A DNA stretch of 64,000 nt from an uncultured Candidatus Binatia bacterium (GTDB lineage Bacteria > Desulfobacterota > Binatia > UBA9968 > JAJDTQ01): assembly GCA_964291295.2 (NCBI GenBank), contig OZ219754.1, positions 1,152,001 to 1,216,000 of the forward strand. Direction: 5' to 3'. The position numbers were made by a program, and so were the translations under genes. Below are positions 57,576-59,496 of the stretch, in pieces. The notes beneath the pieces are model-generated. The model saw only the letters and a program-made list of their open reading frames with translations. It had not been told where the DNA came from and searched no databases. The stretch's first letter is position 1. Each line of letters opens with the position of its first letter.

Positions 57576-57604
57576 TTGACGGGGGGGGGGGGGGGGGGTA
57601 TGGT
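57576..57604 (+). promoter_or_regulatory. Sigma70-type promoter whose 17-bp spacer is pure poly-G (putative phase-variable promoter)
   Basis: TTGACG (57576-57581) + G17 (57582-57598) + TATGGT (57599-57604), about 80 bp upstream of the RTX ATG. Confidence 0.72.
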
Positions 57605-57685
57605 ACCACCAATGACAGCGTGGCGGGATGTGTATGGATAGGTTGGCATGCTGGATAGGTTGGCATGCGGAAAGGAGTGTTCGGG

Positions 57686-59496
57686 ATGAGTATTGAGCGA
57701 ACCGGCGGCGATGGCAATGATGAACTGCGGGGCGGTATTGGCGACGATACGCTGGACGGCGGCAATGGTGACGATACGCTGGACGGCGGCAATGGCGACG
57801 ACGTTCTCTACGGGGGTGACGGCAGGGACAGGCTGTCGGGGGGGGGGAGGGAGTCGACTGGCTGTATGGCGGCGGCGATGATGACACGCTGATAGAGGGC
57901 GGGGCGGGCAACGATTGGCTTTGGGGCGAAGAGGGCGATGACGTGCTGGAAGGGGGGGCGGACAAGGACACGCTGTACGGCGGTTCGGGCGACGACACGC
58001 TGCGGGGGGGCACGGGGGTGGACACGCTGTATGGCGGTTTGGGGGCGGACACCTTCGCATTCGCGGTGGGGGACGGCGCGAACACGATCGTGGATTTCGA
58101 GGTGGGGGACACGATCGAGATTGCCGGGGTATCGGGTGGTTTCCCTGCGCTGGTGATCGAGCAGGATGGCGCCAATGCGGTCATCCGCTACGGCGAGGGT
58201 GACACGATCACGCTGGAGGGCGTGACGGCGGACTCTCTCGGCGCGGAGGACTTCCACTTCCTTCCGGTGGAGACGGTCGCACAGGCGGGAGTCGAGGAGG
58301 ACACGGCTACGCAGGGTGCGCCTGCGGGCGGCGACATTCTGAAGGGCGGCAGGGGCGACGACACGCTGACGGGCGGTGCCGGCGACGACGTTCTGAGAGG
58401 CCGCAGAGGCGCGGACACGCTGGAGGGTGGTGCCGGCGACGACACGCTGAGGGGCGGCAGGGGCGCGGACACGCTGACGGGCGGTGCGGGCGACGACACG
58501 CTGACGGGCGGTCGTGGCGCGGACACCTTCGTGTTCGCGGCAGGGGACGGCGCTGACACGATCACCGATTTCGAGGCAGGGGACAGGATTCGTCTTGACG
58601 GCGTGGTGGGCGGGTTCACGGCGCTCCGTATCGATCAGGAAGGCGCCGATACGGTCATCCGTTACGGCGACGGCGCCGATACGATCACCCTGTCGGGGGT
58701 GACGGCGGCCTCCTTGGGCGAGGAGGATTTCAACCTGCCTGCCGGCGCCGGCAGCGATGACAGCAAGAAGGTCGCATACGGTGTCAGTGCCGGGGACCCG
58801 CCCGGCGTGAGCGGGCAGTCCGGCAACACCGGCGAGACCACGAGCACGCCAACCGGCGACGACCTCACCCTGAAGGGCGGCCGAGGTGACGACACCCTGA
58901 AGGGCGGCGACGGTGACGATACCCTGGATGGCGGCCGGGGCGACGACACCCTGGAGGGCGGCGACGGTGACGATACCCTGGATGGCGGCTGGGGCGACGA
59001 CACCCTGAATGGCGGTGACGGTGACGATACCCTGGATGGCGGCCGGGGCGACGATACCCTGAATGGCGGCGACGGTGACGATAGCCTGTCTAGCAGCCAC
59101 GGCGACAACACCATGGTGGGCGGCAAGGGCAACGACACCATGACAAGTGGCTGGGTGGCCGATACCTTCGTGTTCCACGAGGGTGATGGGCAGGACACGA
59201 TCAAGTCGTTCGGCTTCGGGTTTGGTGGAAGCGACGAGTACCTTCCCACTTACGAAGATTTTGAAGCGGCCGAGAAGAAGGCCTTGGCCAATGGGTGGAC
59301 GGATGTCATCCAGCTTCACCTCTACGCTACGGCCGACCAGATCTCGGACCAAGCCGCTTTCGAGTCGCTGGATATCCGCCAGGACGGGGACCATACGGTC
59401 ATCGGCTACGGCGGTTCGGGAGATACCATCACACTGCTCGATACCGACATGGCCTCTCTGAGCATGGACGACTTCGAATTCATTTTCATGGCCTAG
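57686..59496 (+). CDS. RTX Ca-binding repeat protein, frameshifted in a G10 tract (57838-57847)
   Basis: AAGGAG + ATG 57686: [17 protein letters not shown]...DRLSGG. The repeats continue in another frame ([15 protein letters not shown]...) to TAG 59496. G8 or G11 restores one ORF of about 600 aa. Confidence 0.88.

Follow-up and report, generated by a model that had tools for sequence, protein, structure and literature searches.

A poly-G promoter spacer and a coding G tract in an RTX-repeat protein gene point to a putative contingency locus, one of about 37 G/C tracts in the genome of an uncultured Candidatus Binatia bacterium

The DNA analysed here is a 64,000-nt stretch of the genome of an uncultured Candidatus Binatia bacterium (assembly GCA_964291295.2, contig OZ219754.1, positions 1,152,001 to 1,216,000 of the forward strand; hereafter, the window), whose plus strand carries a gene for an RTX-repeat protein preceded by a run of 18 G residues placed between two promoter-like hexamers. 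An earlier note on the window had claimed that this run, together with a second G run inside the coding sequence, makes the gene a two-tier phase-variable, or contingency, locus. Positions 57576 to 57604 read TTGAC (57576-57580), G18 (57581-57598) and TATGGT (57599-57604). When the first G of the tract is counted in the -35 box, the layout becomes TTGACG (57576-57581), a spacer of 17 nt made of G only, and TATGGT as the -10 box, just as had been claimed; direct reading and a consensus promoter scan agree on it, the latter picking TTGACG-17-TATGGT, a 17-nt spacer with nine of 12 positions matched. Between 57000 and 59800 there are two promoter-like sites, whereas 50 shuffles gave 0.3 on average. 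The -35 box is preceded by a motif, GGGCAAGACC (57549-57575), which contains two copies of CAAGACCTTG (57552-57561 and 57564-57573); the second copy stops 2 nt upstream of TTGAC, a register that corresponds to five nucleotides after the full 11-nt module described below. Transcription is predicted to start near 57611, just 5' of the motif ATGACAG (57612-57618), which is common to other poly-G promoters of this genome. The 5' leader holds a perfect tandem duplication of the 17-nt unit TGGATAGGTTGGCATGC (57635-57668), found only in this gene (copy A) and in its closest paralogue (copy B), the unit being single-copy or absent in the other RTX paralogues, and a Shine-Dalgarno sequence, AAAGGAG (57671-57677), lies upstream of the ATG at 57686.

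The frame that opens at this ATG (57686-57892; PF00353, E 7.4e-16) stops at 57890-57892, so that the product as assembled has 68 amino acids. The frame is broken at a 14-nt tract (57838-57851) that begins 152 nt into the coding sequence and consists of G10 (57838-57847), an A (57848) and GGG (57849-57851). The remainder of the gene lies in a shifted frame (57847-59496) of 549 open codons, with three RTX-repeat modules and a TAG stop at 59494-59496; it matches PF00353 with an E value of 2.9e-55, in nine stretches. Thus, the tract has the two features of an intragenic switch, a position in the 5' part of the open reading frame (ORF) and a length change that truncates the product. The frame arithmetic of the earlier note, according to which G8 or G11 would restore the repeats, is correct, and the tract measures 14 nt here as compared with 12 nt in the in-frame paralogues. 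Its description as a coding G10 was right as to the run and the broken frame, but the run is not a clean, isolated one (it continues as A-G3), nor do the other paralogues keep it as a homopolymer. At this position copy B has G12 followed directly by AGTCGAC and is in frame; the in-frame form of 12 nt seen in other paralogues is G6-C-G-A-G3, two more distant ones carrying GGGGGGCGAGGG and GGGGGGCGACGG, which encode S-G-G-E/D-G inside a GGxGxDxLx repeat.

As read through the shift, the protein contains tandem GGxGxDxUx nonapeptide repeats (PF00353) that start at its first residues, and it consists of RTX repeat blocks only, each followed by a segment of the form '...DTFVF..GDG.DTI.DF..GD.I.L', three times in all; the C-terminus reads ...DDFEFIFMA. 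No curated family cut-off was reached (the RTX_toxin model NF033943 scored 228.5 bits against 1000, over the repeat region only), and homologues are named only 'calcium-binding protein'. A toxin label, in the sense of a pore former of the HlyA/CyaA type, is therefore unsupported, the whole-protein match to NF033943 being far below its cut-off. The genome, of 3.70 Mb in three contigs with 66% GC, encodes a PrtD-type ABC transporter (TIGR01842, 630.8 bits) and an HlyD-type partner (TIGR01843, 326.9 bits), both above their curated cut-offs; the two genes are adjacent to each other, at positions 2631592-2634592 of the contig designated C1, away from the RTX gene. The presence of this exporter and its partner makes secretion plausible, and export of the RTX protein by a type I system is probable.

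Copy B lies in the same genome, at C1:1267705-1269376, and is 99.5% identical to positions 57073-58747 of the window, diverging beyond that block. Its promoter tract is also G18, and it lacks the first T of TATGGT. It is intact, with 610 amino acids from its ATG (L015 4105), and matches PF00353 with an E value of 5e-81, in a Pfam scan made on a 617-amino acid ORF call.

The promoter of the window gene belongs to a family. In this genome, TTGAC-Gn-TAnnnT heads seven RTX paralogues and four surface-lipoprotein genes. The spacers of the eleven long-tract promoters, read manually, are of 15, 15, 16, 16, 17, 17, 17, 19, 19, 20 and 20 nt, a scatter around the optimum such as would be expected of independently drifting switches. 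The simpler pattern TTGAC-N0-3-G12 occurs at seven loci, and its reversed control at none; the composite TTGAN...TAnnnT...(A/G)TGACAG occurs nine times, in seven cases with a poly-G spacer. A 29-nt module, TTCAGGCTCACTTTGCATTGGACAAGACT, recurs upstream: 13 copies have its 'ttcaggc' part and eight of these have TTGA exactly 5 nt on, four with mixed 17-18 nt spacers of the ordinary kind and then TAnnnT, and four with poly-G spacers, one of them interrupted. A related module, TTGGACAAGAC(C/T)-N5-TTGAC, precedes poly-G and ordinary promoters alike; in the window the arrangement is CAAGACC, the same five nucleotides, then TTGACG. The ordinary promoters that have an upstream module carry TTGAC(A/C) in the register of the poly-G promoters, and the position of the -35 box is thus kept in promoters without poly-G. 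Since the poly-G and ordinary promoters share one design, it appears that poly-G has replaced the spacer of a promoter that is also used without a tract. The module TTCAGGCTCACTTTGCATTGGACAAGACT is found 5 nt upstream of the -35 boxes of diverse genes, the type I secretion operon included (copies are seen, for example, at C1:1851629, 3156501, 2631198 and 555036); it may serve as a site for an activator or as an UP-like element, or mark where a mobile promoter ends.

The tract in the window is also one of many. In the genome as a whole, counts of G/C runs are multiplied by 0.156 with every additional base up to a length of 9 nt, and a separate population of 35 G/C tracts of 12-27 nt, as compared with 0.012 expected, lies beyond; with two further tracts of 10 nt the set comes to 37, of which 30 have at least 15 nt. 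A/T runs never exceed 9 nt. All 37 were classified by ORF finding and by Pfam scans of their surroundings. Seven are RTX paralogue promoters (TTGAC-Gn-TAnnnT), two are the coding tracts of the window gene and its twin, four are promoters of lipoproteins of the TbpB_B_D type (TTGACAgt-Gn-TAAAGT), five are poly-C tracts just 3' of the lipobox of further lipoprotein genes, seven lie in or at the start of genes of the restriction-modification (R-M) type, and 12 are intergenic, without a recognisable promoter (at C1:586116, 896843, 1818433, 3071512 and 3343886, among others, with seven more). The lipoprotein tracts belong to a larger collection of about 18 TbpB_B_D/Slam-type surface lipoprotein loci, coding for proteins of about 600 amino acids with a GLAAC lipobox (e.g. 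L012 2868-4703; L016, L020, L022 and L027). Among the coding poly-C tracts, those of 16, 19, 19 and 22 nt keep the signal peptide and the mature part in one frame, and the tract of 20 nt splits its gene. That tract lengths obey the frame in this way indicates that the assembled lengths are biologically coherent and not noise. The R-M-type genes (L002, L004, L007, L010, L011, L014 and L025; tracts of G13-G27) include Mrr-helicase-methylase fusions and DUF1156, N6_N4 and Eco57I methylases; two are clearly in frame (a 1492-amino acid Mrr-helicase-methylase protein and a DUF1156 methylase), one is apparently split, with a weak Eco57I-methylase match downstream of the tract, and four are ambiguous. 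The seven form a candidate set of phase-variable methylases. Several of the intergenic tracts stand directly 3' of a terminator-like hairpin (...CCGGTTTTC) and 5' of a second GC-rich hairpin, and these hairpin-flanked tracts lie downstream of small ORFs without a Pfam match. Transposase genes (DruA-like, DDE domains) are found beside several tracts (L003, L009 and L020); the end of a transposable element directly abuts a G19 tract at C1:355458, and another element has taken the place of the upstream module in a lipoprotein promoter at C1:1847782.

Variation in tract length was assessed among duplicates in the genome and in assembled Logan contigs from three public runs of one study (X1, X2 and X3), which represent related populations. 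Duplicate loci with near-identical 60-nt flanks differ in tract length in six of six pairs; in three pairs, where 298-299 of 300 flank bases are identical, the tracts are G16/G17, G15/G17 and G15/G14. A contig of X1 is identical to the window across 57073-57719, G18 included. A 317-nt contig of X2, with a depth of 573 out of 710, has 6 nt fewer in the promoter tract and carries two substitutions, one of them the base diagnostic of copy B; in this form 13 nt separate TTGAC from ATGGT, as compared with 19 in copy A and 18 in copy B. At the coding tract copy B is in frame and copy A out of it in the assembled genome; the run contigs, which break at this tract, are not assignable to one copy, and paralogues pile onto the RTX repeats, making depth there uninformative. 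Among the pieces listed for X1 none extends over 57720-57817, a gap to which we attach no weight. Two metagenome scans with the exact flanks and other tract lengths gave no matches. As to the quality of the data, intact ORFs span G/C runs of 4, 5, 6 and 7 nt equally often (73, 74, 72 and 68%), which speaks against a general problem with homopolymer frameshifts. A poly-G artefact of two-colour sequencing chemistry was also considered and rejected: the tracts are internal to a 3.6-Mb contig, stand between conserved promoter boxes or obey a reading frame, and are met with again in other genomes of the genus that consist of a single contig.

Taken together, these observations make it probable that the locus is a slipped-strand contingency locus of the porA/vlp type, belonging to a set of about 37 tracts spread over the genome. 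The G18 run would be the spacer of a sigma-70-type promoter for the RTX gene, whose hexamers are presumably the ones used. Slipped-strand mispairing during replication would add G's to the run or remove them, changing the distance between the -35 and -10 boxes and hence the strength of the promoter, as in porA or vlp; the tract is thus proposed to act as an expression dial. The full set of tracts, or phasome, would control RTX proteins, TbpB-like surface lipoproteins and R-M genes. The earlier note's assignment of a contingency locus therefore finds support in the paralogous promoters, in the six of six duplicate pairs and in the shorter contig of X2, the switching as such being inferred. Its two-tier switch fares unevenly: the promoter tier is well supported by comparison, but the coding tier, a real frame break when set against the in-frame copy B, lies in a tract that is young and confined to copies A and B, and this recent slip may act as a switch or reflect decay.

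The simplest history of the coding tract would start from the G6-C-G-A-G3 of other paralogues, which a C to G substitution would have turned into G8-A-G3; in copy B an A to G change would then have given G12, still in frame, and the window copy would have gained two G's, with the result that its frame is now broken (OFF) and that of copy B, 99.5% identical to it, is not (ON). On this comparison the coding tract appears to be young, a tract in the making that has already slipped once, rather than a conserved device. We consider it quite probable that the frameshift is real; if it is, a usable second switch and a young pseudogene are about equally probable, and a slip of this kind would be reversible.

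Several results weigh against the contingency reading. Copies A and B are equal at G18, which would be unexpected under extreme instability unless selection or a recent gene conversion has kept them so. Three further RTX-type promoters carry only G8-G9 and one carries G10, leaving 8-15 nt between the same hexamers; some copies must accordingly be dead or rely on other signals. Maintenance of a homopolymer among homologues was not seen at the coding position, where a long G run occurs only in the A/B pair. No read-level heterogeneity in length was seen in the assembled contigs of the three runs, which come from one study, are confounded by paralogues and cannot reveal heterogeneity within a population. 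No orthologous locus was found among the 27 other species of the genus that were searched, so that cross-species conservation lends no support. The composition of the spacer affects promoters, and a pure G:C spacer may mean a weak one. Finally, MutS and MutL are encoded in the genome; their presence also led us to reject a loss of mismatch repair as the origin of the tracts. A G8/C8 run lies at C1:2949290, about 15 nt from the DNA_mis_repair match (2949312-2949653) of mutL, whose 661-amino acid open frame has no stops as assembled.

Other explanations bear mostly on the coding tract. It is possible, though we would not call it probable, that the promoter tract is variable and the coding frameshift is decay, that is, a +2 slip in one of two recently homogenised copies that has left a young pseudogene. 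The homopolymer is confined to the A/B pair, the G6 of the other paralogues being interrupted by C and A; the run, of 10-12 nt, is far shorter than the other coding tracts of the genome (13-27 nt); copy B supplies an intact protein; and the whole cassette is dispensable, as it is missing from a related strain. Set against this, the 549 downstream codons all remain open and give a strong RTX-repeat score, coding tracts clearly serve as ON/OFF devices in the lipoproteins of this genome, and G10 runs are prone to slippage in known systems such as the tracts of Neisseria and Campylobacter. The shift could instead be an assembly or consensus error at a homopolymer common to two 99.5%-identical copies, the gene being in frame in the cell, as would be suggested by the fact that the near-identical paralogues differ exactly at this tract, which invites mis-polishing, that the contigs of X1 break there, with none of the pieces listed spanning it without differences, and that forms shorter by 2 nt are abundant (871 of a depth of 1382 in X2 and 129 of 926 in X1). 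We think this unlikely: paralogue B and the other paralogues can account for the shorter contigs, the offset is +2 with the interrupting A kept, not a simple miscount of plus or minus one, broken ORFs are not in excess over runs of 4-7 nt, and much longer lipoprotein tracts are in frame in four of five genes. The intact downstream frame would also agree with expression of the out-of-frame copy at a low level, through slippage of RNA polymerase or ribosomal frameshifting on the G run. Long homopolymers can indeed cause transcriptional slippage, which is established mainly for A/T runs; a shift of +1 or -2 would be needed here and G/C runs are poor substrates as compared with A/T runs. No stimulatory structure or known shift site was found, although no search aimed at one was made, and we regard this explanation as very improbable.

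A different objection concerns the tracts in general, which might act mainly otherwise than through spacer length, by forming G-quadruplexes that stimulate transcription or recombination between paralogues, or by binding a protein. G-quadruplexes are possible from about 15 G, and gonococcal pilE offers a precedent. The 30 tracts of at least 15 nt go beyond what known slippage switches need, the 12 intergenic tracts have no recognisable promoter and several come right after terminator-like hairpins, and copies A and B are homogenised over their 5' 1.67 kb and differ in their 3' parts, a signature of gene conversion. Yet the promoter tracts stand exactly between the hexamers and the lipoprotein tracts follow the reading frame, both as predicted by length-based switching, and the window tract lies inside the block of A/B identity and not at its edge; action by such routes is, in our view, distinctly improbable.

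Most elements of the favoured contingency reading have precedents, in promoter-spacer homopolymers of the porA, opc and vlp type and in intragenic ones such as those of lgtG, the 7A tract of porA and the poly-G of Campylobacter. In porA of Neisseria meningitidis the tract has 9-11 nt and lies inside a mixed spacer. Excerpts of a study of this gene describe poly-G between the -10 and -35 boxes, with a tract that started at 11G, as well as a 7A tract within the 5' region of the reading frame; there, the promoter homopolymer grades expression and the early coding homopolymer yields null variants (PMC3639595). To the extent of those excerpts, the precedent invoked in the earlier note, a homopolymer in the porA promoter spacer, is accurate, and the two-tier layout, with a promoter-spacer and an early coding homopolymer, is the same as in the window. 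The differences are that here the whole 17-nt spacer is G, within a tract of 18 nt, that the product is an RTX-repeat protein and not a porin, and that the organism belongs to the Binatia, where switching is a prediction. In the vlp genes of Mycoplasma hyorhinis a tract of 17 A's corresponds to the ON state. Part of a published account, citing Citti and Wise (1995), places a poly-A tract in every vlp promoter, with insertions and deletions turning transcription ON or OFF (PMC10502178). The window gene likewise belongs to a multigene family, each member with its own long promoter homopolymer; but the vlp tracts consist of A's, in an AT-rich pathogen that has no cell wall, whereas these are poly-G in a genome of 66% GC, and one promoter design here serves two unrelated gene families. 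Meningococcal phasomes include surface proteins and R-M genes, and the phasomes of Neisseria and Haemophilus in general take in surface proteins controlled by simple sequence repeats, Slam lipoproteins of the TbpB/fHbp type and phase-variable R-M genes (PMC5084427, PMC5953494, PMC5449769). The set described here has tracts in three corresponding classes, namely proteins that are secreted or at the surface, TbpB_B_D lipoproteins (Slam being present) and R-M genes; it differs in its much longer tracts (12-27 nt) and in residing in the metagenome-assembled genome (MAG) of an uncultured Binatia member. Our literature searches found no work on phase variation in Binatia, and for the combination of RTX, homopolymeric tract and promoter spacer they returned only work on Neisseria, Arcobacter and Mycoplasma. 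The mechanism, two-tier layout included, is thus known; the novelty lies in the lineage and the gene family, in a spacer made entirely of G, and in how many and how long the tracts are.

The lineage is, as had been supposed, a non-model one: by prfB, the closest named relatives are Candidatus Binatia MAGs, with 87-91% amino acid identity. The comparison of related genomes that the earlier note had proposed gave a mixed outcome, with long tracts in some sister species but, as said above, no orthologous locus. When the DNA of window positions 57440-57960 was searched against 28 genomes of the genus, real matches were found only in the own genome, those in G023 and G009 being of 22-32 nt; TTGAC-N0-3-G12 was absent from all 27 other genomes of the genus, and the prfB neighbourhoods of nine close relatives contain neither a G/C run of at least 9 nt nor an RTX cassette. 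Counts of overlapping G14 matches are 160 here, 75-584 in six other genomes of the genus, single-contig ones included, 0-23 in most of the remaining ones and 0-50 outside the genus. Long G tracts are thus a patchy trait within the genus. Tracts of at least 14 nt number 29 in G023 and 12 in G005 (L174-L203), where they again fall in paralogous families with differing lengths (for example G28/G24/G20, and C15/C26/C22/C15 directly 3' of the start codon of a signal-peptide gene). Of the 28 genomes searched, only that of this species has the TTGAC-poly-G promoter, the RTX promoter DNA and the TbpB-like family, the last being absent from the 27 others at E <= 1e-20. Homologues of Slam (PF04575) occur in 25 of the 28, and the DUF560 family is placed 'throughout Proteobacteria' in a passage of a published study (PMC8406197).

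The RTX gene is part of a cassette. A repeat of about 457 nt (57073-57530, plus strand) lies between the prfB stop (57038) and the promoter and forms the first part of the block common to copy B; BLAST against the own genome returned about eight further copies at 80-83% identity, and three of the intergenic G tracts have a copy of this repeat at a distance of about 1.27 kb. Two further dispersed repeats, found in the same way, lie downstream of the gene (59491-59672 and 59666-60115; about ten and about three further copies, respectively, at 84-91% identity). No Rfam family was detected between 54000 and 64000 at E values up to 0.1, the flanking repeats included. The repeats, the promoter and the RTX gene make up a cassette of 3750 nt (57039-60788) that is absent from a related strain: a contig of X3 links 57038 to 60789 through five other letters, with 52 differences in 2039 nt of flank. 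The missing block also takes in most of a minus-strand ORF of 169 amino acids.

A broader synthesis of these observations is possible, and we offer it tentatively. A phasome of tracts of 12-27 nt would be built on a portable module (the TTGGACAAGAC box, TTGAC, poly-G, TAnnnT and (A/G)TGACAG) grafted onto two unrelated families of exposed proteins, the RTX proteins and the Slam-type lipoproteins. The window may have caught the birth of a new coding tract, from G6 through G8 to G10 or G12. Once beyond a threshold, tracts seem to lengthen to about 14-27 nt, which would suggest a bias in slippage or repair peculiar to the lineage, and the longest tracts may in addition promote gene conversion among paralogues as hot spots of G-quadruplex formation.

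The textbook cases of contingency loci driven by slippage come from a small number of host-adapted pathogens. In the present case, a full repertoire of such candidate loci (RTX proteins, TbpB-like lipoproteins and R-M genes) appears in the genome of an uncultured member of the Binatia, and candidate tracts appear in several, though not all, sister species. The interest of the RTX locus lies mainly in the genome-wide picture of tracts that it opens. At a practical level, gene callers will split or drop such genes, and the consensus of a MAG hides a mixed population. The tracts also provide material for asking how G runs of up to 27 nt are tolerated with mismatch repair intact, how a variable promoter spreads among gene families, and how a new tract arises. 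If the proposed switching takes place, it would imply that the cell surface and phage defence are under strong, fluctuating selection in a lineage about whose lifestyle very little is known.

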